From IMG/VR virus record IMGVR_UViG_3300034655_000019: a stretch of 41,702 nt of DNA; one strand, written 5' to 3'. The stretch is from a virus. Shown piece after piece: positions 8,157 through 29,496 of this stretch; the stretch's first letter is position 1; the number at the start of each line of letters is the position of its first letter. The notes under the pieces are model-generated. The model did not search any database. It saw only the letters and a program-made list of their open reading frames with translations, and had not been told where the DNA came from. Made by a program: the position numbers and the translations under genes.

Positions 8157-8163
8157 GTGCCTG

Positions 8164-8528: not shown

Positions 8529-8568
8529 TTTTTAGGTGTGCGCAAACGCGCGCCGGGGAGGCGACACA

Positions 8569-8978: not shown

Positions 8979-9035
8979 TCTCGGATGTTTTGGGCAGCAG
9001 ACTCTTAAGACTGGGCACAAAACCGACTCCCAAGA
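8949..9035 (-). ncRNA. Candidate antisense (CopA-like) countertranscript of the repA leader; 5' end not defined
   Basis: Terminator above plus a second imperfect stem-loop (ACTCTT...AAGAGT, 9000-9037). Only a weak -10-like TTAAAC near 9040-9045 on the minus strand. Confidence 0.3.
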
Positions 9036-9084
9036 GTTTAACTGTTGCACGAAGCGCGGGCAAGTCTCTACAGAGATTTTGCAA

Positions 9085-10050
9085 ATGGATGCTGCAGCAG
9101 AGAACGCGCAGCCCCTCACGTGGGGGCGCGTGCCGTACGAACACCCAGGCAAGTGGTGGGGCACTGGTAACCGGTGTGGCCACGACCCCGCTAAAGGGGA
9201 ATTTGACCGCTATTGCCAACCGCTGAAAAAGGGCAGGCTACCCGCCACCCTGCAGGCGTTGGTAGACGGTGCAAAAGCCTACTACACCAGCCCCGGCTTA
9301 TTACCCACCCTGGCCAATCTGAATGGCAAGGCCAACGCCGATGGCAACCCCCGTTGTAACCGATCCGAGGCCCGCGCCGCTGAGTCGCTGGTGCTTTCTG
9401 CCATCATTCAGTTTACCGAGTTCGCCAGCCTGCGGGTGGGCACCCCGCTAGCCGATGGTGGTTTCAAGCACCGCAGCTGCGCTGAAATTGCCCGCGTGGC
9501 GGGCCTGCTGGCACCCGGCAGCACACCAGAAGCCCCCGAGCCTAGCCAACGCTTTTGGCGCGCCTTCCGGCGCTTGAAGCTGGCTGGCGCGTTCACCGTG
9601 CATTTGCAGCATGAAGTCAAAGCCGACGGCACGAAGCGGGCGCGGCCTGCTGTGAAGCTACTCAACCCGGATTTTCTGCTGGCGCTGGGGCGTGTGGGCT
9701 ACCAGAAGTTTAAGGAGTTCCGCGACTGGTGCAGCAACCGCATTAAGAAAGCCCGCCGTAAGCACCGCGAACAGCACCCCAAGGCGTACGACGCCGCCCA
9801 GGCCCGTAGCCGCCTAGCGATGGCAGGCAGCGGCCCCAGAGCGATGCAGAAGCAGCGCCGGGGTAAGAAGGATCTACCCGACGCCAACGATGAAAAAGAA
9901 CTGCAGCGCCGCTATAACCAAGAGGCAAACGCCTACTTTGCCCAGGTGGTGCGCGATAACCCCGGTGCCAGCCATGCCGAGGTGAACAAGCTGGTGCGCA
10001 TCAAGTACCCGCCGTATGAAGAGTGGCTAGACCGGCAGCGACGTTACTAG
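9085..10050 (+). CDS. repA: Plasmid replication initiator, IncFII RepA-like
   Basis: By-eye colinearity with R100/R1 RepA: SEARAAESLVLSAIIQF..RSCAEIARVAGLL..RFWRAFRRLKLAGAFTV, then a basic C-terminal tail. First ATG in the frame is at 9085. An ori-like region lies directly downstream. Confidence 0.6.
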   Translation: MDAAAENAQPLTWGRVPYEHPGKWWGTGNRCGHDPAKGEFDRYCQPLKKGRLPATLQALVDGAKAYYTSPGLLPTLANLNGKANADGNPRCNRSEARAAESLVLSAIIQFTEFASLRVGTPLADGGFKHRSCAEIARVAGLLAPGSTPEAPEPSQRFWRAFRRLKLAGAFTVHLQHEVKADGTKRARPAVKLLNPDFLLALGRVGYQKFKEFRDWCSNRIKKARRKHREQHPKAYDAAQARSRLAMAGSGPRAMQKQRRGKKDLPDANDEKELQRRYNQEANAYFAQVVRDNPGASHAEVNKLVRIKYPPYEEWLDRQRRY

Positions 10051-10235
10051 CCCGCTGCTAACCCCACCTAAAAACGCCACATAGCGCCCACGCCGGGCGC
10101 ATCGCCCGTGGTTAAGCGTTGCCCTGCCCTCACTTCCCCGCCTGTTTTAGCGCCGCGCTGGCGCAAAATCTCCCCGATCTAAGCCCGATAACACCCCCGG
10201 AAAGCCCAAACCCCGCCGCTGATTCGAACCCCCTT

Positions 10236-10340
10236 TAAAGATGTAAAATTAAGTGATTTGAAAATAGAATTAGGTAATATGAGATTAAATTAGCTGTACA
10301 CCGTTAATATGCTTCTCTTATGTAATTAAATAGGTTCAGC
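10236..10340. other. oriV AT-rich tract (candidate DNA unwinding element)
   Basis: About 105 bp, strongly AT-rich (aaagatgtaaaattaagtgatttgaaaatagaattaggtaatatgagattaaattag...) in a GC-rich replicon, next to a DnaA box. Confidence 0.6.
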
Positions 10341-10361
10341 TAACCCCCACTAACGTGGGGT

Positions 10362-10370
10362 TTATCCACA
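10362..10370 (+). promoter_or_regulatory. DnaA box, perfect consensus TTATCCACA
   Basis: Exact 9-mer read at 10362-10370, flanked by hairpin CCCCAC-taac-GTGGGG. Confidence 0.7.
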
Positions 10371-10390
10371 ATGCCCGCGCAAGCGCGGAA
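10371..10390. repeat. ori palindromic repeat copy 1 (ATGCCCGCGCAAGCGCGGAA)
   Basis: CCGCGC-AA-GCGCGG palindrome; second copy 53 bp away. Confidence 0.7.
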
Positions 10391-10423
10391 GCTCTTTTAA
10401 GGGCACAAGGTCAAGGGCTTTAA

Positions 10424-10443
10424 ATGCCTGCGCAAGCGCAGAA
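10424..10443. repeat. ori palindromic repeat copy 2 (ATGCCTGCGCAAGCGCAGAA)
   Basis: Differs from copy 1 at two symmetric positions (C:G to T:A), preserving the palindrome. Confidence 0.7.
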
Positions 10444-10671
10444 CCGCTCTACACTGACGCCCAGCCCTGCCGGGCTGGTTGTCCCAGGGGTTGCACCCCT
10501 GGACCCCGCTAAAAACCACCCCAAACCCCGTTTAGCAGTGGCAAGGGGTGCCGCATAGTTGGGCGGGCTAACGCCCGTTCGCCGCGCAGGTATAATTCCT
10601 GTTTATAGTTCAGTGGGCGGCTTGCATGTCGCTAGCGCGACATAACCCACAACCCCCGGTAAACTAAGCGC

Positions 10672-10956
10672 ATGACGCTACCGCCTTCCCTTCCCCGCAC
10701 GCTTGCCCAACTGCAGGCCACCACTTGCACGCACTGCAACGGCCACGGCTTTACGCATGGGCTTTTTCACCGCTTCCCATGCGCTGCGTGTGCCGAGGTG
10801 GGTTATGTGCAGCACCCAGGCAGCCGCCGGTTAGATCGCTTGGCCATTGGCGTGATTGCCCGCACCCGATCACAGCAGGCAGCGGCCCACGCCCGGCGTC
10901 AAAACACCGGCACGCCGGATAACTGGATACTCAAAAACAATTTCCGGGGTGATTAG
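10672..10956 (+). CDS. Small zinc-finger protein (DnaJ-type CxxCxGxG motif)
   Basis: CTHCNGHGF and CAACAEVGY motifs; perfect TATAAT at 10591-10596 upstream. Confidence 0.45.
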   Translation: MTLPPSLPRTLAQLQATTCTHCNGHGFTHGLFHRFPCAACAEVGYVQHPGSRRLDRLAIGVIARTRSQQAAAHARRQNTGTPDNWILKNNFRGD

Positions 10957-10999
10957 CGGCTGCTATAGTGGGAATATGTCACGCTAACAGGTGCCCGCT

Positions 11000-11272
11000 A
11001 TGCCCCGCCCCAAGCAAATGAACGCCGATGAAGTGGCCACGTGGTTAGCTGTGCTGCTAGATGCTGCCTTTGACCCCGCCCACGATGCCGTAGAACAGCA
11101 AGGCAAGGCCCAACTGCTGGCGCTGGCCAGCGACTTTACCCACTACCCCGACGATTACCCGGACGCCCGCCGGGCTGAATTGCTATTGCGGTGGGTGTCG
11201 ATCTGGCTACCCGGCGAATGGTGGCAGCGGTTGCAGGGCCGGGTAAGAAAGCGGCGTTCACGTGGCGCTTAG
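11000..11272 (+). CDS. Hypothetical protein
   Basis: ATG 11000 with AGGTG 7 nt upstream (the track starts at GTG 10991); 90 aa. Confidence 0.4.
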   Translation: MPRPKQMNADEVATWLAVLLDAAFDPAHDAVEQQGKAQLLALASDFTHYPDDYPDARRAELLLRWVSIWLPGEWWQRLQGRVRKRRSRGA

Positions 11273-11916
11273 TGTGCCTTTTCGCGCATAGCCCGCTTTA
11301 CCTTTTTCACAGTGGTTTCACCGCACCCGGCTAGCTCGCAAATGCGCGCCGTGGTGAACGGTTTGCCTTCACCATCGCGGGCGTTCAATAGCGCTTCAAT
11401 TCGCTGGTGTAGTGCCTTGTTGGGCCGCTTGCCCTGGTACTTGCCTTCCTTCTTTGCTTGCTCTATCCCCTGGCGCTGGCGCGTTCGCCGGTCGTCGTAG
11501 TCTTTGCGGGCTACCGCTGCGAGTACGTCTAGCATCATGGTATTCAGCGCATCGAGCATGCGGGCGGTAAAATCCTCGCCCTGGCTGGGCGTGGCCATGG
11601 CTGCGTAGCTAGTGGGAAGGTCCAGCGACACCACCCGTAACCCTAGCGCCTCAATCTGCCCCCGCAGGTGCCGCCACTCTGCCGCCCCCAGGCGGGAAAG
11701 ACGGTCTACCGATTCTATCAGCAGCACATCACCTTGCTTGGCATCTTCCAGAAGCCTCCTGAGTTCTGGGCGCTGGCTGCTAGCGCCGCTCACATTCTCG
11801 ATATACCAGCTCACTACCTCACGGCGATGTTCAGCGGCGAAGTGTTCTAGCGTGCTGCGTGCCCGCTGGGCGTTCTGTTCTGCCGTGCTGGCGCGTAGGT
11901 ATCCCCTGACGTACAT
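11269..11916 (-). CDS. Serine recombinase (resolvase/invertase family), probable multimer resolvase
   Basis: N-terminal YLRASTAEQ catalytic-Ser motif, DRLSR motif, C-terminal HTH FTTARICELAGCGETTVKKV. Confidence 0.85.
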   Translation of the reverse strand: MYVRGYLRASTAEQNAQRARSTLEHFAAEHRREVVSWYIENVSGASSQRPELRRLLEDAKQGDVLLIESVDRLSRLGAAEWRHLRGQIEALGLRVVSLDLPTSYAAMATPSQGEDFTARMLDALNTMMLDVLAAVARKDYDDRRTRQRQGIEQAKKEGKYQGKRPNKALHQRIEALLNARDGEGKPFTTARICELAGCGETTVKKVKRAMREKAH

Positions 11917-11938
11917 GCGTTCCCCCTGGCGGTGTTTT

Positions 11939-11983
11939 GGGCGTTTTGGGTGGGCAGTTTAGCAGGTGGGCGTTTTGGGTGGG
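11939..11983. repeat. Two perfect 16-bp direct repeats GGGCGTTTTGGGTGGG (11939-11954, 11968-11983) upstream of the resolvase
   Basis: Read directly; a third degenerate copy GGTGTTTTGGG is at 11931-11941. Confidence 0.75.
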
Positions 11984-11996
11984 GGTTTGGCTAAAA

Positions 11997-12014
11997 CGCC
12001 TGATTGATCAGGCG
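11997..12014. repeat. Inverted repeat CGCCTGAT-TG-ATCAGGCG (candidate recombinase site)
   Basis: 8-bp perfect arms, 2-bp centre. Confidence 0.6.
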
Positions 12015-12052
12015 GGCCACCAGTGGGCGCTTAGGGAGTACCTAAAGTGACG

Positions 12053-12090
12053 TGTAGCTAAAAGCTATACGTGTATAGCTTTTAGCTACA
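12053..12090. promoter_or_regulatory. 38-bp near-perfect palindrome (18-bp arms), candidate TA operator
   Basis: TGTAGCTAAAAGCTATAC-GT-GTATAGCTTTTAGCTACA, ends 5 bp before an extended -10. Confidence 0.6.
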
Positions 12091-12095
12091 TGGCG

Positions 12096-12104
12096 TGTTA
12101 TAAT
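12096..12104 (+). promoter_or_regulatory. Extended -10 promoter element TGtTATAAT
   Basis: Perfect TATAAT (12099-12104) preceded by TGt. Confidence 0.55.
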
Positions 12105-12301
12105 CTTATCGTCGTCGCATTCCGTGGCGACTCGAAGGCGAGCTGAACGCGACCTTTCGAACATAAAAAAGGAGAGCAACCCATGCAACCAACTCAACAA
12201 GGCGCTACCGAGCCCATACGATAATCGCCTTGCAGGCAGCAACAAGCTGCTTAGCAAGGCTAAGGAGAGAAACACCCTTAAACAGCGATAGGACATACAT
12301 C

Positions 12302-12607
12302 ATGAAAAGCACAGCTGCTGAGGCAGTGGCTAAGCCACTGGCCCTCAATATGCGTGTTGACCCTAAAAAACGCGCCTTGATCGATAGAGCCGTAGCGGAG
12401 CTGGGGGGAGACCGAACCAGCTTTATAGTTGAAGCCGCCTGTAGACGCGCCGAAGATGTTTTGATGGATCGACGTTACTACATGCTGGATGAAGACGACT
12501 ACGCGTTCTTCGAGCAGGCCATTAACAAGCCTATATCGGAGAGACCGTGTCTACAGAAACTTTTACGAAAAGTCCCTTCATGGGAGTCAGTGCACCCGAA
12601 CGCCTAA
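12302..12607 (+). CDS. DUF1778 RHH antitoxin (TacA/AtaR/KacA type)
   Basis: LNMRVDPKKRALIDRAVAELGGDRTSFIVEAACRRAEDVLMDRR closely parallels TacA; overlaps the toxin gene. Confidence 0.85.
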   Translation: MKSTAAEAVAKPLALNMRVDPKKRALIDRAVAELGGDRTSFIVEAACRRAEDVLMDRRYYMLDEDDYAFFEQAINKPISERPCLQKLLRKVPSWESVHPNA

Positions 12608-13062
12608 CGCAAGAGCATGACTTGTCAGCTTTCGACTGCGATAAGTCTTCACTCAATGGCTTTTTAAAAGAGCGAGCGTTAGAAAATACTGCAACCAAAG
12701 CGACAATTACCTACGTGGTGTGCCGCCCAGGAACAAAGCAAGTGGTCGGCTATTTTAGCGTTTGTCCTGGCGGCGTTGATCGAAACGAATTGCCGGGCAA
12801 ATATAAGAAAAACATGCCGAGCATGGTGCCTGTCATCATTCTAGCGAGGCTTGCAATAGATAATTCTATTAAGGGCAATGGAGTTGGTCAGGATTTATTG
12901 CAGGCCGCGTTACTGATGGCTATTGAAAGCTCTTACCACATGGGTGCAGTGGGTATGATGGTTAATGCTGCCGATGATGCGATAGATTTTTATCTAAAGC
13001 ATGACTTCGACGCTTTCCCAAAAGATCCATCGAAGCTAATCACCTCGCTGAAGCTAGAGTGA
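12580..13062 (+). CDS. GNAT acetyltransferase toxin (TacT/AtaT/KacT type)
   Basis: MGVSAPERLTQEHDLSAFDC..., NMPSMVPVIILARLAIDNSIKGNGVGQDLL, colinear with Salmonella TacT. Start at ATG 12580 rather than GTG 12547. Confidence 0.85.
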   Translation: MGVSAPERLTQEHDLSAFDCDKSSLNGFLKERALENTATKATITYVVCRPGTKQVVGYFSVCPGGVDRNELPGKYKKNMPSMVPVIILARLAIDNSIKGNGVGQDLLQAALLMAIESSYHMGAVGMMVNAADDAIDFYLKHDFDAFPKDPSKLITSLKLE

Positions 13063-13075
13063 GATGTGTTTGCCA

Positions 13076-13098
13076 CCCCGCCACCCGGCGGGGTTTTT
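13076..13098 (+). terminator. Rho-independent terminator after the TA operon
   Basis: CCCCGCC-accc-GGCGGGG then TTTTT. Confidence 0.8.
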
Positions 13099-13163
13099 AT
13101 TTATATACCGTTATTTTCCTTGCCCGCTGCTTAGCCAGGTCATTAACCTGATTGATTGCGACG

Positions 13164-13189
13164 AAAAAGCCCGGCGCATAGGCCGGGCT
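13164..13189 (-). terminator. Rho-independent terminator ending the minus-strand par operon
   Basis: AGCCCGGC-gcatag-GCCGGGCT; TTTTT follows on the minus strand. Confidence 0.75.
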
Positions 13190-13196
13190 TGTTAGA

Positions 13197-13433
13197 TTAG
13201 GTGTACGTCTCAATGCTAAATTCCTTGCCCTCTAGGTTGCCTGCTTTCCATGCTTCCGCTTGGCAGGTGCCGAGCTTGTAAGGCATTGCGTCTAATTCGC
13301 CCTTTGGCTTTCCCGCTAAACGCCAGGCTAAGGTTGAGCGCATACCGTTCATGTGTTCGACACTGCGCGTGTGGGACTTCATAAACTCGTCTGCAATACG
13401 ATTGGCTTTTTGCCGATGCTCGATGGTGATCAT
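13197..13433 (-). CDS. Hypothetical protein
   Basis: 78 aa, followed by a terminator. Only a weak resemblance to the RMF-type motif (AG..G....PY......AW..G). Confidence 0.45.
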   Translation of the reverse strand: MITIEHRQKANRIADEFMKSHTRSVEHMNGMRSTLAWRLAGKPKGELDAMPYKLGTCQAEAWKAGNLEGKEFSIETYT

Positions 13434-13443
13434 ATTTTAGCCC

Positions 13444-15171: not shown

Positions 15172-15954
15172 TTACTGTTTGGCGAGTAAGCCGTTGTGGA
15201 TTAGCACTTGCTTGGCTATCGCTTTCCAGTTGGGGCGCTGGCCGATGTGGTGTTGGCCACCGGCTAGCTTGCTGATCCATGCGGTGTAGGGCTGGCCTTC
15301 GCCTACCACCTCTTTTAAAAACGACTGTTGGAAGTCATACCTAAAATCTTCGTATTGGCGCACCTTGGGGCGTAGGGCTTGGAGGCGTTCCATCACCGCC
15401 GGGAAGTCGTCCTGGCTTAAATCTTCGATGCGTTTTAGGCAGTAGTCGGTGCGGACGCCGTTGTAAAACCAGCCGGTGGCGCTTTGGCGCATGCCGTGGA
15501 AGTTGCGAAACACGGCGTTAGCCGCGTTGGTGAGCTGTTCGCGCTGGCGGTGGTCGATGGGCGTAGGGATGGGCTCGGCGGTGGTGGGCTGCATCGCGCC
15601 TTTGACGCGGAAATAGCTTTTGACGAGCTGGCGCTGCACTTGCCATGCGAGGTCGTCGGTAAACGATTTGACCAGCATAAGGTAGCCGGTTTCGGTCACT
15701 AGGTTGGTTGCCCGCGCCTTGGCTGGGAATAGGTCTGCGTAGCGCGTACGAAATTCGTACGCGCAACTTAATTCGATTGGGTGAAAGTCCTCGCCTTCAA
15801 TCATGTGGCGTTTGTTTTTATGGAAAGTACGTCGCGCTGTTCCTTCTGGCCGCTGGTGTACAGCGTCAATCATGGCGAAGGTAACAACGGGTTCGTTTTG
15901 GTATTCGATATAAGGCAGGGAGGTGCCAGAGATAGAAATGGTGGGTGTGTTCAT
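15172..15954 (-). CDS. ORF6N/KilA-N domain DNA-binding protein (antirepressor-like)
   Basis: EPVVTFAMIDAVHQRPEGTARRTFHKNKRHMIEGEDFHPI...TETGYLMLVKSFTDDLAWQVQRQLVKSYF fits the ORF6N pattern. ATG 15954 with AAGGAAG RBS; the track's upstream extension is rejected. Confidence 0.6.
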   Translation of the reverse strand: MNTPTISISGTSLPYIEYQNEPVVTFAMIDAVHQRPEGTARRTFHKNKRHMIEGEDFHPIELSCAYEFRTRYADLFPAKARATNLVTETGYLMLVKSFTDDLAWQVQRQLVKSYFRVKGAMQPTTAEPIPTPIDHRQREQLTNAANAVFRNFHGMRQSATGWFYNGVRTDYCLKRIEDLSQDDFPAVMERLQALRPKVRQYEDFRYDFQQSFLKEVVGEGQPYTAWISKLAGGQHHIGQRPNWKAIAKQVLIHNGLLAKQ

Positions 15955-16267
15955 TTTGGGGCTTCCTTTGATTTGAGGAAGTCCGCCGCATCGCTTCCAA
16001 CCGATGGTGGCGAACCGTACGCAGGTTGGAAGACCGGCCAAAGGTAACCGGCGCGCCGAAGCGCCCCACGCACGGCCCGCCATAGTCATCATGCGGGCAT
16101 AAAAAAACGCCTACACGATAAAACGGGGCGCTGTGCGCCTTTGGTTGCGGGCTTCCAAACCCGGTCGCTGATTTTGCAGCGACACGGGGAGAGTAGCGCT
16201 AGGGCGGGTGGGCGTCAATGGCTGGCCTCGCTGGCGCGCTTCATCGCGGCTAGGCAGCGGCGGCAGT

Positions 16268-17633: not shown

Positions 17634-17932
17634 GCCATCACCCCGTAGGCGGTTAACCGGCGTTCTTCGTGGTCGCCGTAGTGTGGGTTTTCAAAACAGA
17701 ATTCTGAGCGGATGCGGTGCGGGAAGTGGTAGCCGTCGCAGTAGCACGTGTATTTACGCCAGCCCCGGTTATCGGCCCATTTGTCGACTACCAGCGTGTT
17801 GAATTGGCCGCAGTGTTTGCAGCGGATGCGGCGGGTGTAGTCATTCGGGTGCTTGGCCTTGACCTGCCGCCCACGGCAGACGCGACAGCGGCAGTGCCTA
17901 CGGCGCGGGCCTGTGAGGATGTGCGGTTTCAT
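17630..17932 (-). CDS. Cys-rich zinc-binding hypothetical protein
   Basis: CRCRVC, CKHC and CYCDGYHFPH motifs; 100 aa. Confidence 0.45.
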   Translation of the reverse strand: MKPHILTGPRRRHCRCRVCRGRQVKAKHPNDYTRRIRCKHCGQFNTLVVDKWADNRGWRKYTCYCDGYHFPHRIRSEFCFENPHYGDHEERRLTAYGVMA

Positions 17933-18330
17933 GTGCGGCGACCCCCTGCGCTACTGCCCCGCTGAGTACGCATTAGGCGGGCGCTGGCGGTTTGCGTGGG
18001 GCGGCGGGGTAGGCGCTGGGCGATGGCATCTTGTTGGGCGCCATTGCCGAGTGTGGCGACGATCAGTAGCACGGTGAGGCAGCGAGGTAGCAGCACGCCC
18101 AGCACGAACGCGCGGGTAATGAGGTGCGCTTTGCTGAACGCGCCCAGCTTGGCCCGCAGGCTGCTTTCGAGCTGCTGCTGTTGGGCGCGGCTGGTGCCGT
18201 TGATGGCGGCAATGGCGCTGGGGGCGTTGCCGTTGGCGAGGGCGAGCAGGTGGGATAGCTCTTGCTCGCTGAGGGCTTGGCCGGGTTGGGCTAGGGCGTC
18301 GTCGTCGCGCCATGGGGTGGTGTTAGTCAT
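17929..18330 (-). CDS. LuxR/GerE-type HTH protein with hydrophobic C-terminal segment
   Basis: LSEQELSHLLALANGNAPSAIAAINGTSRAQQQQLESSLRAKLGAFSKAHLITRA fits GerE spacing. Followed by LLPRCLTVLLIVATLG. ATG 18330 overlaps the upstream stop. Confidence 0.55.
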   Translation of the reverse strand: MTNTTPWRDDDALAQPGQALSEQELSHLLALANGNAPSAIAAINGTSRAQQQQLESSLRAKLGAFSKAHLITRAFVLGVLLPRCLTVLLIVATLGNGAQQDAIAQRLPRRPTQTASARLMRTQRGSSAGGRRT

Positions 18331-18580
18331 GGTGGCCACCCGTGGCGAGTTCGGCTAGCGCGGCCTTGATCTCTTCTAAATCGCGGCGGTGGCGGTTAAT
18401 GAGAGCAAAAAGGTTGTCGAGTTCTTCCGCTGGGTACTCGCCTTCATCTAGCGCGCATTGGGCCATTTTTTCGAGGCCGCAGGCGATAGCCACGCTTTCG
18501 CGCAAGGCTTGGTGTAGCGCTTGGGGCGTGCAGGCGATGGGGGGCGAGGCGGTAACGGGGGCTAGCGCGTGCGTGGTCAT
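18323..18580 (-). CDS. Hypothetical protein, first gene of the leftward early operon
   Basis: AAGAGGG RBS; 85 aa; directly downstream of operators 18598-18634. Confidence 0.5.
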   Translation of the reverse strand: MTTHALAPVTASPPIACTPQALHQALRESVAIACGLEKMAQCALDEGEYPAEELDNLFALINRHRRDLEEIKAALAELATGGHHD

Positions 18581-18597: not shown

Positions 18598-18614
18598 TTA
18601 CACAGTCTGTGTAA
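18598..18614. promoter_or_regulatory. Operator OL-1: TTACAC-AGTCT-GTGTAA
   Basis: Perfect 8-bp arms TTACACAG/CTGTGTAA. Confidence 0.65.
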
Positions 18615-18617
18615 GAG

Positions 18618-18634
18618 TGACACTAAATGTGTTA
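18618..18634. promoter_or_regulatory. Operator OL-2: TGACAC-TAAAT-GTGTTA
   Basis: Same ACAC-N5-GTGT core, centre 20 bp from OL-1. Confidence 0.6.
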
Positions 18635-18645
18635 TTCGGCAAGCC

Positions 18646-18673
18646 AAAAAAACGGCACTTTGTGGGTGCCGTT
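18646..18673 (-). terminator. Rho-independent terminator after the repressor gene
   Basis: AACGGCAC-loop-GTGCCGTT; 7 T on the minus strand. Confidence 0.8.
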
Positions 18674-18707
18674 CTAGGATTGGGGTGTTTTTCCGCTGGG
18701 CGGGGGC

Positions 18708-19361
18708 TTAGCGTTCGTGCTCGATGATGGCGACGCGGCCGATGATGTTGAGCTGTTGTAGCTGCCCGGTGGTGAGGGTTTCATCCGGGTATTGGTGGCT
18801 GTTTTCGGCGCTCATGGTGTAGCTGCCGTTGATTTCCGGGCGTATCCAGCGCAGCCAAATGCGGTCGCCTACGAGGATGGCGAAGAGGTCGCGCACGGCA
18901 TCGGGCTTGCGGCTCATGTCGATTAGCGCTAAATCGCCCTTGCTGATAACCCCTTCCATGGCGTCATCTTCGGCTTTGACGGTGATAATACTGCTGGGTT
19001 TTAGCCCTTTTTCGGCTAGGTAGTCGTCGCGGTAGGCGGCTACATCGGTGGCGTTTTGCACGGTGATCGAGCCGCCACGGGTTTTAACCGTGGTGCGGTC
19101 TAGCACGACGTAGCTGCTGTCGATCATGCGGTTTGTCCAGCCGACAAAATAGCCGGGGTTGCAGCCAGTTACGTTGCCGATGTCTTCCAATTCTTGATAG
19201 CCGGGCATGCGAATGCCTAGCTCCCAGTTGGTATAACGAGAGCGCACGTAGCCGAGCGCTTCGACTGCGTCGCGGATCGACCACCCTAAGTGGGTGCGCA
19301 CTTCCACTAGTCGCTGTGCGATTAGCTCTTTTTTGTCCTGTCTGTCGCTTTGCTGTGACAT
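18708..19361 (-). CDS. CI-like repressor (XRE HTH + S24/LexA-like domain with apparently substituted catalytic dyad)
   Basis: N-terminal HTH (LGWSIRDAVEALGYVRSRYTNWELG). C-terminus aligns to UmuD/LexA/CI: VKAEDDAMEGVISKGDLALID versus [22 protein letters not shown], and RIWLRWI versus EFTVKKL. Confidence 0.8.
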   Translation of the reverse strand: MSQQSDRQDKKELIAQRLVEVRTHLGWSIRDAVEALGYVRSRYTNWELGIRMPGYQELEDIGNVTGCNPGYFVGWTNRMIDSSYVVLDRTTVKTRGGSITVQNATDVAAYRDDYLAEKGLKPSSIITVKAEDDAMEGVISKGDLALIDMSRKPDAVRDLFAILVGDRIWLRWIRPEINGSYTMSAENSHQYPDETLTTGQLQQLNIIGRVAIIEHER

Positions 19362-19456
19362 TTTCCGCTTCCCGTTATCTATCCCGCCGTTGATGCCGTC
19401 CGTGTGCGCCTTCGGTGATTAATTTTCGGGTAAATATTACCTCTTAGGCAATAGTA

Positions 19457-19473
19457 ATACACAAAGCGTGTAA
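19457..19473. promoter_or_regulatory. Operator OR-1: ATACAC-AAAGC-GTGTAA
   Basis: In the cI/cro divergent region. Confidence 0.6.
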
Positions 19474-19492
19474 GTGTGGAATAAAAAAACCT

Positions 19493-19777
19493 TTGTACGT
19501 GGGCAATCTTCGCGCTAGGCTTAACACACTTCGTGTTAAATGGTGCGCTAAAGTGTTGCTAAATGATTGGATTGATCAAGTGGGCGGGCCGGACTGTGCG
19601 GGCGCGCTGCTCAGCGAGAAGCCCCGTACGGTGATGAGCTGGTATCGCTTTGATCGTGCCCCGAGTTTACGCACCGCTGGGCGCATCGTGCGGTTGACCG
19701 CTGGCGCGGTGGATTATAACGGCATCTATGGCCCTTGGGCGGCGGTGCTGGCTGAGCGTGATGGGGTGGCGGCGTGA
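19493..19777 (+). CDS. Cro/YdaS-like DNA-binding protein (true start probably downstream, e.g. GTG 19556)
   Basis: LNDWIDQVGGPDCAGALLSEKPRTVMSWYRFDRAPSLRTAGRIVRLTAGAVD fits the Cro/YdaS HTH family pattern. The track start is TTG and would include operator OR-2. Confidence 0.6.
   Translation: MYVGNLRARLNTLRVKWCAKVLLNDWIDQVGGPDCAGALLSEKPRTVMSWYRFDRAPSLRTAGRIVRLTAGAVDYNGIYGPWAAVLAERDGVAA
19522..19538. promoter_or_regulatory. Operator OR-2: TAACAC-ACTTC-GTGTTA
   Basis: Perfect arms (7 bp with flanks TTAACAC/GTGTTAA). Confidence 0.6.
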
Positions 19778-21298: not shown

Positions 21299-21724
21299 GT
21301 GGGGCGTCGGGCGGCAAATGATCTGGATGATCTGTTAGAGCGCTGGGCGCGCTGGTGCCTGCACGGTGGCGGCGCTGCGCTGGGTACGTCGCTGCTGGGC
21401 GTGTTGATCGATAACGGCGGGGTAGTGAGCCGTTCGACCGTGGGCGGGTCGGTCCCCATGGGCGCGGAGTCGTACCCGCTCGAAGAGCGCATCGAGTATG
21501 CGGTGGTATCGCTGGCGCGTGAGGATCTGTTGACCGCCGACGTGTTGCGCTTGGAGTACAACGCGGGCGTGGCGCGGGTGGTGAGCCGCCGCAAGCTGCG
21601 TGGCTATGACCACCGCAATATAGGGCAGCTGCAGAAGGCCCACGCGTTAGAAATGGGGGTGAGAACGTACAAGCGGCGGTTGGCTAAGGCCCGTTTGCAT
21701 GTTGAGCAGGTGCTAGGGCTGTGA
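21299..21724 (+). CDS. Putative late-gene regulator (antiterminator Q-like / sigma region-4-like HTH)
   Basis: LERWARWC..., VLRLEYNAG..., C-terminal GVRTYKRRLAKARLHVEQVL; GTG start with GGAGG RBS; last gene of the early-right block. Confidence 0.35.
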   Translation: MGRRAANDLDDLLERWARWCLHGGGAALGTSLLGVLIDNGGVVSRSTVGGSVPMGAESYPLEERIEYAVVSLAREDLLTADVLRLEYNAGVARVVSRRKLRGYDHRNIGQLQKAHALEMGVRTYKRRLAKARLHVEQVLGL

Positions 21725-23517: not shown

Positions 23518-23563
23518 TTTAAAACGCTATAACGCTAGCGTCATATAACGCAATAACGCAACG
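23518..23563. repeat. ATAACGC heptad locus E, upstream of the integrase
   Basis: AAAACGCTATAACGCTAGCGTCATATAACGCAATAACGCAAC; the first 21 nt are shared with 15078-15098. Confidence 0.8.
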
Positions 23564-23621
23564 GCTCAGCCCGGCGCATTGACCCCCGAGCGGGGGCGTT
23601 GCTGTCTCGGAGTTTGAGCCA

Positions 23622-24890
23622 ATGCCTAAAACCCTCGCTGTTACCCTGTCTGATGCTGCGATTAAGCGGCACCTACCTGACCCTGATATTTTCCAGTTGC
23701 GCGACCCGCGCTACCCGGTGCGGGTGCGCTTTCATGCGAGCCGTGATCGTGCCAGCTGGTACGTGGTGCGCTACGCGGGCGGGCGTGGCCACTGGCACCG
23801 GGTGGGCAATTACCCGGAGTTGACGACCCGCGCTTTGCTGGCGCGTTTGCCTGAGTTGGAGGCCAAGCTGGCGCTTGACCCGGCGGGGCCGGTGGGCGTC
23901 GATGCGTGGGAAACCGTGGCCGACCTGCTGTGTTGGTATCGTGACCGTTCGGCTTCCCATGGCCGTTTATCCGCTACTCGAAAATCATCGATCAAAACCG
24001 CCGTTAATCGTCACTTGCTGCCCCTGTTCGGTGCCCGGCCGCTGGCGGGCATTACCCCGGCGTGTATCGACAGTGGCTTGGTGTGGCCGCTGCAAGAGCA
24101 TTATTCGGTGGCCTATGTGCGCCTGATTTTCGGGGTGATCAAGGCCGCGTTTAAGCAAGCCCGCAAGCTGAACCTGCTGGATACTGACCCCTTCGCTGGG
24201 GTGAATGTGGGTGATTTCATCGACGCAAAAACCCCAGCTAAGGCGGGGGCGCTGACCGCTTCCGATGTGCCTGATCTGATAAGCGCGTTGCGTTCGTGCG
24301 ATCCGCCGGGGTGTTTCCTGCTGTTGTTAATGCTGCTGTTTGGCACCCGTATTAGCGAGACGCGGCTAGCCAAGTGGGGGCAGTTCGATCTCGAAGCGCG
24401 CACGTGGACCATCCCCACCGACAACACAAAATCAAAGCGACAGCACCGCCTGCCGTTAACGCCCATGGCCGTGACGCTGCTAACCCGTTACCGCGCTTAT
24501 CAGCAAGCCAATGGTTACCGGGGAGTGTATTTGTTCCCTGGTGCATCGAAAGGTAAGCCGCTATCCCGTTCAGCCGTGTTTGATCTGGTGGTGAGTGCCA
24601 GTGGTGCGCGTTGGCATTCTCACGATCTGCGTAAGCTCGCCCGTACCACATGGGCTGACCTCGGGGTCGAGTATCTGGCCGGTGAGTTGTTGCTGAACCA
24701 TGCGCTATCGAAGCTCGACCGTACCTACATTCATACCTACGCTGAGCGGCAGATTCTCGATGCGTTGGAGCGCTGGCATACCTGGCTATGTGAGCGCGGT
24801 TTTAGCGTGTTTCTGACCGAGACAGAGCCGAGATTGTCGTTTTATCACAACAGCGACCAGCCCCAGTGGTGGCAAGGGGTGGCGGGGTAA
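23622..24890 (+). CDS. int: Tyrosine integrase, P4-type (DUF4102-like N-terminal arm-binding domain)
   Basis: GTRISETRLAKWGQFD, HDLRKLARTTWADLG, LLNHALSKLDRTYIHTY (R..HxxR..Y catalytic pattern). Confidence 0.85.
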   Translation: MPKTLAVTLSDAAIKRHLPDPDIFQLRDPRYPVRVRFHASRDRASWYVVRYAGGRGHWHRVGNYPELTTRALLARLPELEAKLALDPAGPVGVDAWETVADLLCWYRDRSASHGRLSATRKSSIKTAVNRHLLPLFGARPLAGITPACIDSGLVWPLQEHYSVAYVRLIFGVIKAAFKQARKLNLLDTDPFAGVNVGDFIDAKTPAKAGALTASDVPDLISALRSCDPPGCFLLLLMLLFGTRISETRLAKWGQFDLEARTWTIPTDNTKSKRQHRLPLTPMAVTLLTRYRAYQQANGYRGVYLFPGASKGKPLSRSAVFDLVVSASGARWHSHDLRKLARTTWADLGVEYLAGELLLNHALSKLDRTYIHTYAERQILDALERWHTWLCERGFSVFLTETEPRLSFYHNSDQPQWWQGVAG

Positions 24891-24974
24891 TGAGCAAACC
24901 TATCTGTTAAGAGTATCCAGCACCTGCCGCGATGGTGGTTGGCATGCTGGTGTGTAACACTCTTGAGGGGCATT

Positions 24975-24991
24975 TAACACTCAACGTGTTG
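24975..24991. promoter_or_regulatory. Fifth operator-like site TAACAC-TCAAC-GTGTTG, upstream of the lysis/late genes
   Basis: Same ACAC-N5-GTGT core as the immunity-region operators. Confidence 0.5.
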
Positions 24992-25017
24992 CATCCGGTG
25001 GCACTTTGATCTATCGT
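24989..25017 (+). promoter_or_regulatory. Candidate late promoter (TTGCAT-17-TATCGT)
   Basis: -35 overlaps the operator-like palindrome; the hexamers are only moderate matches. Confidence 0.3.
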
Positions 25018-25088
25018 TTATGGCATGTGGGGTATTTCCGTTCCCTTGGCCCCGCAGCAAGCCCTTTAATGTTCTCTGCTTAGACATG

Positions 25089-25112
25089 CCGCCCCTCACC
25101 GGGCGGTTTTTT
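25089..25112 (+). terminator. Rho-independent terminator just upstream of the holin (tR'-like)
   Basis: CCGCCC-ctcacc-GGGCGG + TTTTTT, extended by AGACAT/ATGTCT. Confidence 0.8.
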
Positions 25113-25136
25113 ATGTCTGCGATTTGGTGATTGCTT

Positions 25137-25430
25137 ATGAAAGTCGACGCTGGCCGTGTGATTGCGTACGTGGGCGGCAGTGGCGTGTCTGCTGTGTCGC
25201 AAACGTCCAAGGCCAGCGCGGCCGCCGTCATGGATATTTCACCCTCGCCCGGCGAGGTGGTGTCGCTACTGAATGCGCCATGGTTTGAGATGGGAGGCGT
25301 TCACGTGGTGACGGCTGATGTGGTGAGCGTGGGCGGCTTGGTGTTCGTCGGGCTGCGCTTGGCGTTCGATATTTGGAAGCATTTTGACAACCGCAGGAGA
25401 GAGCGCAATGGCCAACAAGAGAGCGATTAG
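25137..25430 (+). CDS. Putative holin/pinholin
   Basis: Hydrophobic segments (VVSVGGLVFVGLRLAF) and charged C-tail KHFDNRRRERNGQQESD; directly upstream of the endolysin. Confidence 0.5.
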   Translation: MKVDAGRVIAYVGGSGVSAVSQTSKASAAAVMDISPSPGEVVSLLNAPWFEMGGVHVVTADVVSVGGLVFVGLRLAFDIWKHFDNRRRERNGQQESD

Positions 25431-25974
25431 CGCCGGAGTGGGCGCAGTAATGGCGATAGCGGCGGGCATCATCGTGCCGTTCGAGGGCACCAAGCTGGAG
25501 AGCTACCGAGACGCGGTAGGCGTGTGGACGGTTTGCACCGGGCACACGGCCACCGCAGCCCCAGGCCAAACGCTCACCCCGGCAGAGTGTGACGCGTTGC
25601 TAGAGCAGGACATGCGCGAGGCGCTGAGCGCGGTGGATCGCATCATTACCGCGCCCCTTCCCGATGATACCCGCGCCGCGTTCGTTTCGTTCACGTTCAA
25701 CGTGGGCGCGGGCAACCTGCAGCGTTCGACGCTGGCCCGGCTGGCGAATGCTGGGGAGCTTGAGGCTGCATGCAATGAGTTGTCCCGCTGGGTGTATGCC
25801 GGTGGTGAGCGGTTGCGCGGGCTGGCAAGACGCCGCGCCGTTGAGCGTGATGTGTGTTTAGAGGGGGTGCGGGATGCTGAGCAGGATGCTAACGAAGCTG
25901 ATTCCGTGGGCGCTGGTGATAGCGCTGGTCGCTGGCATTGGTTTGATGTGGCGACTCAGTGGGTTACAGGCTGA
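25408..25974 (+). CDS. SAR endolysin, GH24 lysozyme family
   Basis: N-terminal signal-anchor AISAGVGAVMAIAAGIIV. Catalytic E-x8-D-x5-T in FEGTKLESYRDAVGVWTVCTGHT. AGGAGAGAG RBS. Confidence 0.85.
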   Translation: MANKRAISAGVGAVMAIAAGIIVPFEGTKLESYRDAVGVWTVCTGHTATAAPGQTLTPAECDALLEQDMREALSAVDRIITAPLPDDTRAAFVSFTFNVGAGNLQRSTLARLANAGELEAACNELSRWVYAGGERLRGLARRRAVERDVCLEGVRDAEQDANEADSVGAGDSAGRWHWFDVATQWVTG

Positions 25975-26296
25975 GTTAGAGCAGGCCCAGCAGCAGCACG
26001 CGAAAGCACAAGCCGCGCTTGATGTGACCGCCGCGACGTTGGCGGTGCAGGTAGAGCGTAACCGGCTGTTAGTTGAAGCGTTAGATGTGCGCGAACGTGA
26101 ATTAAACGACGGCGCGCAGCGCATCGACCGACTGCGCGCCCAGGCCGAAGCCATGGGGGTGAACGATGCGGATTCAGATTCTAGGGCGTGGGCTGGCCAG
26201 CCTGTGCCTATCGGCGTTGCTGATTGGGTGCGCCGCCTCACCCGCCCCGACACCAGCGGAGCCGACACCCCAAGCGCTGCCGTGGTTCCTGATTGA
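25874..26296 (+). CDS. i-spanin (Rz-like)
   Basis: N-terminal TM LIPWALVIALVAGIGLMW, then a coiled-coil periplasmic domain. Confidence 0.75.
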   Translation: MLSRMLTKLIPWALVIALVAGIGLMWRLSGLQAELEQAQQQHAKAQAALDVTAATLAVQVERNRLLVEALDVRERELNDGAQRIDRLRAQAEAMGVNDADSDSRAWAGQPVPIGVADWVRRLTRPDTSGADTPSAAVVPD

Positions 26297-26438
26297 TCCA
26301 CGCCCCGCGCCCGTCCGAGAGATCCACACCAACCGCGACCTGCTGCAGCTGCTAGCCGACTACGAAGCCCTGCGCATCCGCTTCAACGCCGACCGCCGCG
26401 CCGTGGCGTTGATATTCCGCAATCGGCAGGCCGAGTAA
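26166..26438 (+). CDS. o-spanin lipoprotein (Rz1-like), overlapped architecture
   Basis: Lipobox LLIGC, Pro-rich mature N-terminus. Starts inside Rz in another frame and extends past it. Confidence 0.75.
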   Translation: MRIQILGRGLASLCLSALLIGCAASPAPTPAEPTPQALPWFLIDPRPAPVREIHTNRDLLQLLADYEALRIRFNADRRAVALIFRNRQAE

Positions 26439-26681
26439 TGCACCAACGCGGTGCAAAAAAAACGCGGGTCCTTCCTAGCAAGTGATGCCTAGACCACGGG
26501 GGCAGGCAGTCGCGGATTTCGGGAAATTTTCGGGTTTTCAGGATGTACCACCGCAGGTGGGGTTAATCCCGTGTGGTTGCTCAGCGCGTTAACTGTGCAA
26601 GTTGTACATCGAGCAGCTTGTTTTTAATCGAATCATGTACAGCTGAGCGGGGGTTATCAGCGCCGCAAGAGGTGGGCATCT

Positions 26682-27182
26682 ATGGGTGAAGTGGTCGAGA
26701 GCAAAGATGCCTATAACTGGTCGGTGAGCAGGATTGGTCAAGCGTTCGGATTAGACCGCCGCACGGTGGCTAAACGGTTGCAAGAGAGCGGCGTCATGCC
26801 CGCCGGGACGCGTCGAGGAAACCCCACGTATGCACTTTCAGACGTTGGCCCGGCGCTGTTCGGAGAAAAGACGCCGGTAGCGGGCGGGCTGGATTTAGAC
26901 CAGTTCCCCGATGCGCGTAAGGCTTGGTATCAGTCGGAAAACGAGCGCCTTAAATTTGAGGTGGCCATAAAGCAGCTGATACCGGCGCATGAGTTTGCCC
27001 GCGAGTTAAGCACCCTGGCCAAGACGGTGGCGGCGGGCCTGGATTCATTGCCCGATGCGTTGGAGCGTGACGCCGGGCTAGACCCTGACGCCATCGAACG
27101 TGTACAGCACGTTATCGACGCGCTGCGCGAGCAGATGTACCAAGCGGCAACGGCGGATATGGAGAGCCCAGAAAATGGCTAA
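26682..27182 (+). CDS. Terminase small subunit
   Basis: N-terminal HTH SVSRIGQAFGLDRRTVAKRLQESGV; 8-nt overlap with terL; AAGAGGTGGG RBS. Confidence 0.7.
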   Translation: MGEVVESKDAYNWSVSRIGQAFGLDRRTVAKRLQESGVMPAGTRRGNPTYALSDVGPALFGEKTPVAGGLDLDQFPDARKAWYQSENERLKFEVAIKQLIPAHEFARELSTLAKTVAAGLDSLPDALERDAGLDPDAIERVQHVIDALREQMYQAATADMESPENG

Positions 27183-29256
27183 CACCGCTAACGCTGCCGC
27201 CATTCGCCATGACATAGCCACGCTGTTACGCCCGCCGCGCCGGGTGCGTGTGAGTGAGGCGGTGGCCGAGTCGATGTACGTTGTACACGGCAACGGCACC
27301 AAAACGCTTTGGAAACCGGACAAAACCCCCTACATGATCGAGCCCATGGACTGCATGGGCTCCCGCAAATATGACGCGGTGATTTTCGTAGGCCCGGCGC
27401 GAACAGGTAAAACCATCGGCCTCGTTGACGGCTTTATTTGCTACAAGATCATCAACGACCCTGGTGATGGGCTGGTCGTACAAATTACCGAAACCAAGGC
27501 AGCGGAGTACAGCAAAAAGCGCTTGCGCCGTAGCTTCAACGCTTCGCCCGAAATTACCAAGCGGTTAAGCCCGCGTGGCCACGACAACAACGTTCACGAC
27601 ATCATTTTTCGCGCTGGCAACATGTTGGCGATTAAGCACCCATCGAAGAACGTTTTTGCATCGTCTGATTACCAATTTGTGCTACTGACCGACTACGACC
27701 GTATGACGGAAAACGTAGGCGGTGAGGGTTCCGGCTGGGTGCTGGCGAGCAAACGTACCCAAACGTTCGGCAGTACCGGCATGACGCTGGTGGAGAGTTC
27801 GCCCGGCAGGCCGGTGCTCGATGCCGATTGGCAGCAGCCCGACGACGAGCCGCACCGGGCACCGCCCACCACCGGCATACTGGATCTTTACAACCAAGGC
27901 GACCGCCGCCGCTTGTACTGGCAGTGTCCAGAAAGCGCCTGCCGCCGCTGGTTTCAGCCGATTCAAGAGAATTTCAGCATGAAAAGCGGGTGTGTGTTTT
28001 GCCCGCACTGTGGCGCTGAGGTCGACCAGCGAGTTAAGCGCGAGCTTAACCAGCGTGGCCGCTGGGTGCCGGAAGGCTGCGAGCTGACGTTAGACGGCGA
28101 GCTGCTAGGCACCCCGCGTGAAACCCGCATCGCGTCATTCTGGATGGAAGGTCCGGCGGCATCGGATCAAACATGGCAATCGCTGGTGAGCAAGCTGCGC
28201 GCCGCCGAAGAGACGTTTCAGGCCACGGGCAACCAAAAAGATTTGCAGTCGGTCACCAACGTCGATTGGGGCCGCCCCTATGTAAACCGCACGCCGGGGG
28301 AGAAGCGCTCAGGTCAGCGCCTGAAAGATCGAGGCGAAGCCTACCAGCATCGAACCGTGCCCCACGGTGTGCGCTTTCTTACGGCAGCGGTAGACGTACA
28401 GGGCGGCAAAAACCGCCGGTTCGTGGTGCAGGTGCATGGCTGGGGGCCGAACCGCGAAACGTGGCTAGTGGACCGCTTCAACATCAAAGAGGATCGCGGC
28501 CCCGACGGCGACCAGCCACCCAGGCAGATTAACCCTATGACGCAGCCCGAGGATTGGGACTTGCTGACCCGCGACGTGCTCAAGCGCACCTATAAGCTGG
28601 GCGACGGCAGCGGGCGGCGTATGCCGATTCTCGCCATGGGCGTGGATACCGGCGGGGAAGGCAAAGGCACTGAAAGCGTGACCTCGCAGGCGTACGAATA
28701 CCACCGCCGGTTAAGAGCCGGGGGCGATGGCCTGCAAGGCCGCGTGTACCTGCTGAAAGGCGGTAGTAGCAAAACTAATAGCCGCATCCGTAAAACCGAG
28801 CCCGACAACACCAAGCGCAAAAGCCGCAGCAGTGGGGCGCGTGGCGATGTGCCGTTGTACCTGTTGGGCACCGATCTGTTGAAAGACACCGTAGCGGCGA
28901 TGATCGACCGCGAACAGCCCGGCGCGGGCTACATGCACACCCCTGATTGGTTGGGTATGTGGTGGTTTGACGAGCTGACCTACGAAGTACGCGACCCCGC
29001 CACCGGCAAATGGGCGCGCCCTGGCAGCAAGCCAAACGAAGCCTTCGACCTGTTCGTTTACAACCTCGCCATTTTCATTCTGCTGGGGGGCGAGAAGATC
29101 AACTGGCAAGCCCCGCCCACGTGGGCCGACCACTGGGACGCTAACTTGCTGCTAAGCGCGCCCACCACCGGCACCGAAGCAAGCCAACCACCACCCCAGG
29201 CACAACCCGCGCCCCAAGCGCGTCGCCGCCGTCGCGTTGTTAAGCCCCGAATTTAG
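27175..29256 (+). CDS. Terminase large subunit, lambda GpA family
   Basis: Walker A FVGPARTGKT, zinc-ribbon CPESACRRW...CPHCG, GpA-like order. ATG 27175 (the track start 27100 is rejected). Confidence 0.9.
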   Translation: MANTANAAAIRHDIATLLRPPRRVRVSEAVAESMYVVHGNGTKTLWKPDKTPYMIEPMDCMGSRKYDAVIFVGPARTGKTIGLVDGFICYKIINDPGDGLVVQITETKAAEYSKKRLRRSFNASPEITKRLSPRGHDNNVHDIIFRAGNMLAIKHPSKNVFASSDYQFVLLTDYDRMTENVGGEGSGWVLASKRTQTFGSTGMTLVESSPGRPVLDADWQQPDDEPHRAPPTTGILDLYNQGDRRRLYWQCPESACRRWFQPIQENFSMKSGCVFCPHCGAEVDQRVKRELNQRGRWVPEGCELTLDGELLGTPRETRIASFWMEGPAASDQTWQSLVSKLRAAEETFQATGNQKDLQSVTNVDWGRPYVNRTPGEKRSGQRLKDRGEAYQHRTVPHGVRFLTAAVDVQGGKNRRFVVQVHGWGPNRETWLVDRFNIKEDRGPDGDQPPRQINPMTQPEDWDLLTRDVLKRTYKLGDGSGRRMPILAMGVDTGGEGKGTESVTSQAYEYHRRLRAGGDGLQGRVYLLKGGSSKTNSRIRKTEPDNTKRKSRSSGARGDVPLYLLGTDLLKDTVAAMIDREQPGAGYMHTPDWLGMWWFDELTYEVRDPATGKWARPGSKPNEAFDLFVYNLAIFILLGGEKINWQAPPTWADHWDANLLLSAPTTGTEASQPPPQAQPAPQARRRRRVVKPRI

Positions 29257-29267
29257 GAGGCCCACCC

Positions 29268-29495
29268 ATGGCCAACACCCCCGAACAGCTTGCCGAGGTT
29301 CGCCAAGCCATCGTAGACCTGGCAACGGGTAAACGCGTCGTATCCATTAACCAAAACGGGCGGCAGGTGCAGTTTGCCCAAGCCGACTTACCTGCGCTGC
29401 AGTCGCTGGAAAATCAGATAGCCGAACGCCTGCAGGCGCTCAGCAAGCGCCGCCGTAGCCGTACCCGCCTAGTGATGACCAACAAGGGGCTTTGA
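29268..29495 (+). CDS. Head-tail joining protein, gpW family
   Basis: 75 aa, between terL and the portal as in lambda; QLAEVRQAIVDLATGKRVVSINQNGRQVQF pattern. Confidence 0.75.
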   Translation: MANTPEQLAEVRQAIVDLATGKRVVSINQNGRQVQFAQADLPALQSLENQIAERLQALSKRRRSRTRLVMTNKGL

Positions 29496-29496
29496 C

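Follow-up and report, generated by a model that had tools for sequence, protein, structure and literature searches.

In the linear telomere phages N15 and phiKO2, the prophage repressor CB binds the operators OR1-3 and also two OL sites that lie on the promoter of the replication gene repA, and it lowers plasmid copy number (PMC4997575). In the plasmid prophage P1, the C1 repressor has 22 operators scattered over the genome, those of repL and lpa among them (PMC8546580), and in the cluster A mycobacteriophages far-flung repressor sites change their motif with the repressor among heteroimmune relatives (PMC6550527, PMC9283540). Here we describe a viral DNA of 41,702 nucleotides (IMG/VR record IMGVR_UViG_3300034655_000019), the whole of which we call the window, that encodes a cI-like repressor beside a divergent cro-like gene and carries six copies of a 17-bp palindrome at four promoters. 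We conclude that all six copies are probably operators of the phage's own cI-type repressor, including one copy at a late (lysis) promoter and one at the promoter of a repA-like gene.

A search for the 17-mer TWACAC-N5-GTGTWA with at most one mismatch returned six sites in the window where 0.07 would be expected. The bare ACAC-N5-GTGT core occurs seven times against an expectation of 0.48, a count that none of 100 shuffled sequences reached. All six full sites are palindromic, intergenic and located at promoters, and they are distributed over four loci: two at the leftward early promoter pL, two between cI and cro, one at the late promoter and one at the repA promoter (Table 1). A sequence-only reading of the same DNA had listed five of these sites, each with its correct sequence and position, and had rightly expected the core less than once by chance. 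Its inventory of five copies was nevertheless one short, because the full site upstream of repA had been overlooked.

The two distal sites also emerge when the search is informed by the switch only. A weight matrix was trained on the four switch sites and then scored over the rest of the genome, where its two best hits were the repA-upstream site (19.4 bits) and the late site (15.2 bits), the next-best hit reaching 9.7 bits. Neither the pattern scan nor the weight-matrix scan found further OL or OR sites above background. The pattern search for extra copies inside genes, which the earlier reading had proposed as a check, yielded one weak core only, CGACAC-TGCGC-GTGTGG at 13358-13374. This match lies inside the minus-strand open reading frame (ORF) 13197-13433, in a stretch of about 12563-13441 that has no counterpart in relatives, and it was rejected as an operator on account of its wrong outer bases and a matrix score at background. 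It is probably a product of chance.

Table 1. Features of the window, and operator sites at the homologous positions of heteroimmune (type-B) relatives
Feature	Positions	Strand	Sequence or remark
repA-upstream operator	8825-8841		TAACAC-AGTTC-GTGTCA; right half is the inferred -35
Inferred repA promoter	8836-8864	+	GTGTCA-17-TAGGAT; read by eye
repA-like replication initiator	9085-10050	+	PHROG 20951
ORF6N/Ant-like ORF	15172-16092	-	ORF6N domain
C4 antisense RNA (RF01695)	16003-16087	-	Rfam 68.8 bits, above gathering threshold
isrK	16103-16183	-	Rfam 50.8 bits, above gathering threshold
c4-a1b1 targets (RF03163)	16144-16196	-	Rfam 64.8 bits, above gathering threshold
OL1	18598-18614		TTACAC-AGTCT-GTGTAA; at about +1 of inferred pL
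OL2	18618-18634		TGACAC-TAAAT-GTGTTA; in spacer of inferred pL
Inferred pL -35	18643-18638	-	TTGCCG
Intrinsic terminator of cI transcript	18649-18675	-	
cI-like repressor	18708-19361	-	217 aa; HTH N-domain and Peptidase_S24 C-domain (PF00717, 1.6e-9)
OR2	19457-19473		ATACAC-AAAGC-GTGTAA; centre at about -63 of pR, cI side
Inferred pR	19493-19521	+	TTGTAC-17-TAGGCT; read by eye
OR1	19522-19538		TAACAC-ACTTC-GTGTTA; abuts pR -10, covers inferred start
cro-like gene	19550-19777	+	75 aa, GTG start; divergent from cI
Tyrosine integrase	23622-24890		mid-genome
Late operator	24975-24991		TAACAC-TCAAC-GTGTTG; final TTG is the start of the -35
Inferred late promoter with conserved leader and terminator	24988-25113	+	TTGCAT-17-TATCGT
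Late-unit intrinsic terminator	25088-25113		strong; 18 nt before holin-like gene
Holin-like gene	25131-25430	+	
Phage lysozyme	25384-25974	+	
Type-B OR, cro side			GT(C/T)CAC-AATAT-GTGTCA
Type-B OR, cI side			ATACAC-TTTTT-GTGGCC
Type-B OL			GTACAC-TTAAA-GTGGCA
Type-B late, all three genomes			GTCCAC-ATTAT-GTGTTG
Type-B repA, G001 and G007			GTTCAC-AAATA-GTGGCA

The switch shares with that of lambda a helix-turn-helix (HTH) repressor with an S24-type C-terminal domain, a divergent cro, operators on both sides of cI and 17-bp sites of 6-5-6 geometry. The half-sites of lambda OR2 (TAACAC-CGTGC-GTGTTG) equal those of the late site in the window. The earlier description of a lambda-like OL/cI/OR layout holds in that the sites flank cI, but not for the array itself, which comprises 2+2 sites rather than the 3+3 of lambda and contains no three tandem sites at a spacing of roughly 23-24 bp. 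As that description also stated, two sites lie between the cI terminator and the leftward operon, whose first ATG is at 18580, and two between cI and the start of the cro-like gene at about 19550. OL1 and OL2 are 20 bp apart from centre to centre. In contrast to lambda, OR1 and OR2 bracket pR at a distance of 65 bp, and a spacing of 63-65 bp is kept in four lineages.

The layout of pR likewise recurs, as TTGTTA-17-TAGTTT in heteroimmune relatives (type B, see below) and as TTGTAA-18-TAGAAT in a plasmid of Aeromonas veronii, and a type-B relative has its own operator at the same pL register, after TTGCTA. Two candidate -10 elements for a cI promoter (pRM), TATTAC over OR2 and TAATAT 17 bp further on, were inconsistently kept among type A, type B and A. 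veronii and were set aside.

The repressor combines an N-terminal HTH domain, which also matches HTH_3, HTH_31 and HTH_19, with a C-terminal S24 (LexA-like) domain. It matches only these generic HTH and S24 families, and a PDB sequence search returned a marginal HTH match only. Around residues 131-136 it reads AEDDAME, compared with AQGDSMA in the A. veronii homologue. With DDAM in place of the GDSM of relatives, the S24 nucleophile serine appears to be replaced by alanine in type-A and type-B repressors alike, a further departure from lambda that suggests a repressor which may not cleave itself. The cro-like ORF has a weak PHROG match to a transcriptional regulator family (phrog_409, E=1e-3), and its product may also bind some of the operators.

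Five genomes make up the homoimmune set that we call type A: the window, three further IMG/VR genomes (G002, G003 and G004) and a plasmid of Halomonas qaidamensis. Their cI proteins are 93-100% identical to that of the window, and 99-100% in G002-G004. Each of the four relatives has exactly six cores, located at six homologous positions, and a control search with the reversed pattern gave zero matches in the IMG/VR genomes. Across five genomes and six sites, variable columns amount to 1/72 in the half-sites, 8/30 in the spacers and 40/180 in the 15-bp flanks (Fisher p=3e-6). At the late site, for example, type-A genomes carry the spacers TCAAC, GCTAA, GTTAC or GCATG between unchanged half-sites, and the OL2 spacer varies between TAAAT and TAATT with its half-sites retained. 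OL1 and the repA-upstream site are invariant across the five genomes.

A second set, type B, comprises three genomes, G001 (=L037), L034 and L038 (=G007), all of them syntenic with the window. G001 aligns to it at 75-94% identity almost throughout (94% over 23519-33772 and 88% over 8108-12562). The type-B cI/cro cassette, however, has been replaced: its cI is 41-44% identical to that of the window, and the recognition helices differ between the types (GIQRTRVSNWE versus GYVRSRYTNWE). In G001, the sole type-B genome scanned whole, there are zero matches to ACAC-N5-GTGT. The type-B switch sites are instead of the CCAC-N5-GTGT kind, as opposed to the ACAC-N5-GTGT of type A, and the distal sites differ as well (Table 1). 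In its left half, the type-B late site matches the cro-side OR site of G001 and L038 exactly; its right half, like the promoter, is shared with type A. The type-B repA site consists of two type-B half-sites, placed in register with a conserved -10 element, TAGGAT, that is common to both types.

Could the distal copies be chance matches, passengers of recombination, or sites for a host factor, for the integrase or for Cro alone? We consider this extremely unlikely. The left half of the late site does fall in a block in which types A and B differ, and the repA site falls in a divergent block shared with the neighboring small gene. The right flank of the late site, however, is type-B-like in the type-A genome G003 and type-A-like in the type-B genome L038; this flank assorts independently of immunity type, so linkage alone does not explain the association. 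Chance is ruled out by the statistics given above and by conservation in five lineages, and a host-factor site was rejected because a host factor would not change its motif with the phage cI allele. The late site lies about 55 bp from a 26-bp candidate attP core, but an integrase arm site was also rejected, since the integrase is about 94% conserved between types A and B while the site motif switches. Moreover, int and the late site are separated by other genes in the elements from Aeromonas and Pseudomonas, which indicates that the site belongs to the late unit and not to attP. Binding by Cro alone is less probable in view of phiKO2 and PY54, where Cro binds a single OR site only (PMC4997575, PMC4488713).

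The fifth site of the sequence-only reading does overlap the -35 of the late promoter, which is assigned by hand. That reading had hinted at direct control by the repressor here, and the reading of this site as a repressor operator is supported by the enrichment of the motif, its promoter-proximal position, its conservation and its co-variation with the repressor allele. The late unit resembles the pR'-tR' region of lambda, in which a late promoter is followed by a leader and a terminator, and to our knowledge lambda has no CI site at pR' or at its replication gene. A lone TAACAC half-site at 24955-24960, 20 bp upstream of the late operator and lacking a right half, may be the remnant of a tandem operator pair.

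The repA-upstream site lies between a 70-codon gene (8569-8781, +) and repA, whose product is 42-54% identical to those of genes that bear the annotation 'plasmid replication protein repA' on plasmids of Aeromonas and Pseudomonas. A LexA-box-like sequence, CTGTATGTATACACAG, precedes the 70-codon gene at 8513-8528, and the Pseudomonas lundensis element described below has a LexA-gated small gene in a matching arrangement, with the box CTGTATATATATCCAG. The small proteins of types A and B are 44% identical (34/77), whereas the adjacent RepA proteins are about 89% identical (287/321). This low identity beside a conserved RepA indicates that the small protein co-varies with cI, as would be expected of an immunity-specific antirepressor. 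Between the inferred promoter and the start of repA, the leader contains a strong hairpin (8953-8990) that is conserved in type A, type B and H. qaidamensis. The hairpin scores better as a terminator on the minus strand, where it reads GAGAAGCCCCAG...CTGGGGCTTTTC followed by a run of T residues, and it could be an attenuator, a terminator for an antisense RNA or a copy-control element.

Comparable site sets are found in more distant lineages. A. veronii pWP8-S18-ESBL-11_1, whose cI is 36% identical to that of the window and which has a P2-like tail module, contains five ACAC-N5-GTGT cores where 0.39 would be expected, and Edwardsiella ictaluri pEI-2083-2 is nearly identical to it in the compared regions. 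The A. veronii sites are one OL, two OR sites 64 bp apart, one site upstream of repA and one before a promoter-leader-terminator-holin-like unit, the holin-like gene of which belongs to the same PHROG families as window 25131-25430. A weaker tandem site lies 19 bp upstream of this late site. P. lundensis pPL-38ph (cI 33%) uses ACAC-N5-GTGT at an OL site, at two OR sites 63 bp apart, upstream of repA (across the origin of the record) and at two late sites. The latter are 18 bp apart on a near-consensus promoter, TTGACA-17-TATATT, which is followed by a leader, a terminator and a holin. Delftia lacustris pHQS1 (cI 32%) carries switch and repA-upstream sites of a TTCCAC-N5-GTGGAA type.

The most likely function of the six sites is repression at all four promoters. 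We favor repression because the sites overlap promoter elements in ways that would be sterically exclusive (the spacer and +1 at pL, +1 at pR and the -35 at the late and repA promoters), because the P. lundensis late promoter is both strong and doubly guarded, and because CB at the repA promoter of N15 and phiKO2 lowers transcription and copy number (PMC4997575). In the mechanism we propose, repressor dimers, formed through the S24-like dimerization domain and carrying HTH domains, would occupy all six sites and thereby four promoters. The pair at pL would shut the leftward early operon that starts from 18580 and includes RdgC, a C4-RNA module and an ORF6N/Ant-like gene. At the switch, OR1 at the pR -10 would block cro and the rightward early operon, with OR2 positioned 65 bp upstream. 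At the late unit, the site at the -35 would allow the repressor to silence the lysis/late promoter directly, so that silencing would not have to rely on the lack of an early activator alone. At repA, occupation of the -35 site would dampen replication of the plasmid during lysogeny, an effect also exerted by CB in N15 and phiKO2. Silencing the late promoter directly would suit a multicopy episome with a late terminator that may leak.

Several observations weigh against this account of repression by cI. One is geometric: the late operator is centered at about -41, a position from which lambda CI activates pRM. The sites might then be true repressor sites that activate the late promoter, and possibly repA, in which case RepA would continue to be made in a lysogen, or the leader would be transcribed there as a short RNA ending at the terminator. 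We judge this unlikely. The operator-final TTG starts the -35 in type A, A. veronii and P. lundensis, which sets the center at about -41 in each, and the -35 hexamers of the window are weak. A plasmid prophage requires RepA in lysogeny, and the terminator after the late promoter means that transcription there need not kill. On the other hand, a near-consensus late promoter with two adjacent operators, as in P. lundensis, is typical of cooperative repression, the half-site at repA coincides with the whole -35, and the N15/phiKO2 repressor represses repA (PMC4997575).

Other points that tell against repression by cI concern the promoters and the type-B comparison. A consensus sigma-70 scan of the switch (including pL), the late unit and repA found no promoter, and for this reason all promoters were assigned by hand from weak hexamers and from their register across lineages. 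Searches of PHROGs, Pfam and NCBIfam did not identify a late activator or Q-type antiterminator; there are only weak sigma-region-4/GerE-like hints at 21299-21724 and 17929-18339. Types A and B differ only slightly, for the most part by a single base in each site. When a weight matrix was derived from three type-B sites, it had little discriminating power and placed the distal sites second and fourth outside the switch, so the type-B argument rests on homologous positions and not on genome-wide ranking. Furthermore, cI and cro reside in one divergent cassette, and co-variation cannot separate which of the two proteins binds. Finally, D. lacustris pHQS1 has no recognizable late site.

The sequence-only reading had also raised looping to the late region. 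If the distal sites acted solely as anchors for long-range loops with OL and OR and not on the promoters next to them, their contribution would be limited to reinforcing repression at the switch, in the manner of lambda OL-OR octamerization. The S24-like C-terminal domain could mediate oligomerization, and the conserved 63-65-bp spacing of OR1 and OR2 hints at cooperative contacts. Anchors, however, would not need to overlap a -35 in equal register across diverged lineages, as both distal sites do, and how far these sites lie from the switch (5.4 and 9.8 kb in the window) differs from lineage to lineage. We regard looping as pure conjecture and very unlikely, and we retain direct repression at the distal promoters as the preferred interpretation.

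The genome that carries these sites is that of a phage-plasmid. Bases 1-127 of the window are an exact direct repeat of 41576-41702, and this 127-bp terminal repeat indicates that the element, about 41.6 kb long, is complete and was assembled as a circle. A syntenic relative is the complete circular 45.8-kb plasmid of H. qaidamensis XH36 (L067, NZ_CP080628.1), and its 88% identical RepA and 93% identical cI identify the element as a phage-plasmid. Maintenance as a plasmid with its own repA is further indicated by ParA and resolvase genes in the window. The database records of the relatives from H. qaidamensis, A. veronii and P. lundensis describe circular molecules, and protelomerase is not among their annotations.

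Described phages offer little that is similar. A blastn search of GenBank phages with the switch region gave no match, the best cI protein match among described phages is 33% identical, and in the structural region only the terminase matched, at about 66%. Literature searches returned no paper on pPL-38ph or on this phage-plasmid family.

Within the pL operon, Rfam RNA matches (16003-16196, -) lie directly upstream of the ORF6N/Ant-like ORF and overlap its 5' end. By its composition, this C4/a1b1/Ant-like set is a predicted antirepressor module of the P1 immI or N15 immA type. Elsewhere, a candidate attP core of 26 bp, CAAACCTATCTGTTAAGAGTATCCAG, occupies 24895-24920, just past the integrase stop codon; CAAACCTATCTGTTAAGAGTATCCAG is identical in all type-A and type-B genomes, with divergence on both flanks. 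We also noted that the H. qaidamensis plasmid encodes, at 25015-26696 of L067, a 'reverse transcriptase/maturase family protein' together with small neighboring genes. This region is part of the accessory region adjoining the LexA-gated small gene and may be a retron-like defense insert.

As read from the sequence, the overall layout is closer to those of N15/phiKO2 and P1 than to that of lambda. With N15 and phiKO2 the element shares a cI/cro-type switch in a plasmid-living phage (PMC4997575, PMC4488713), an antirepressor accompanied by a c4-like antisense RNA, a small gene preceded by a LexA box, perhaps a repressor without self-cleavage motifs (the serine appears to be alanine) and a candidate prophage-repressor operator on the repA promoter (8825-8841). 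It differs from them in being circular rather than a linear telomere phage, and its repA belongs to a different type, is situated about 10 kb away from cI and has its own operator instead of a shared OL. Where those phages have three tandem OR sites, it has two that are 65 bp apart, there is an extra operator on the late/lysis promoter, and the sites are 17-bp ACAC-N5-GTGT palindromes as opposed to 16-bp T-A-N10-T-A sites.

P1, too, is a plasmid prophage whose repressor acts at genome-dispersed operators (PMC8546580), with a regulon that covers replication (repL), late expression (via lpa) and the c4-icd-ant module. An immI-type module is present in the window as well, in the form of C4 and a1b1 upstream of the Ant-like ORF. 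Unlike the window, however, P1 uses an unrelated protein, C1, and 22 asymmetric 17-bp sites in place of six palindromes, and it represses the activator gene lpa, whereas the window has a site on the late promoter itself. The cI/cro cassette of the window phage is a further difference. The cluster A mycobacteriophages provide a parallel for far-flung sites whose motif changes with the repressor among heteroimmune relatives (PMC6550527, PMC9283540). Their roughly 30 stoperators, however, are asymmetric 13-14-bp sequences oriented with transcription inside operons, where they stop elongation, and the six palindromic, intergenic promoter sites of the window are not of this kind. The wiring thus joins features known separately from lambda, N15/phiKO2, P1 and the cluster A mycobacteriophages, and it lacks defining features of each family: there is no 3+3 tandem array, no linear telomere genome, no C1 and no stoperators.

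The regulatory logic is already known, in that the N15/phiKO2 repressor acts on repA and P1 has dispersed operators, and our findings extend these known principles. In the literature found, a cI-type operator on a pR'/tR'-like late promoter that is conserved across several lineages is undescribed. It appears that a single repressor controls the two early operons together with the lysis/late promoter and repA. A more speculative proposal, which we regard as doubtful, is that immunity specificity is spread over three unlinked but co-inherited blocks, namely the switch, the LexA-gated gene with the repA operator, and the left half of the late operator. If true, the repressor would be a hub that couples lysogeny, plasmid copy number and lysis, perhaps working through a multi-site loop or through activation from -41 at one distal promoter, and three-block immunity would constrain mosaic recombination in a manner undescribed for lambdoid phages.

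The heteroimmune pair, with ACAC sites in one type, CCAC sites in the other and matching changes 5 and 10 kb away, amounts to a natural experiment on the evolution of immunity specificity in a system of scattered operators. More generally, the regulon mapped here can be put to the test in a widespread but so far unstudied family of circular phage-plasmids, which ranges over Halomonas, Aeromonas, Edwardsiella, Pseudomonas, Delftia and marine metagenomes.

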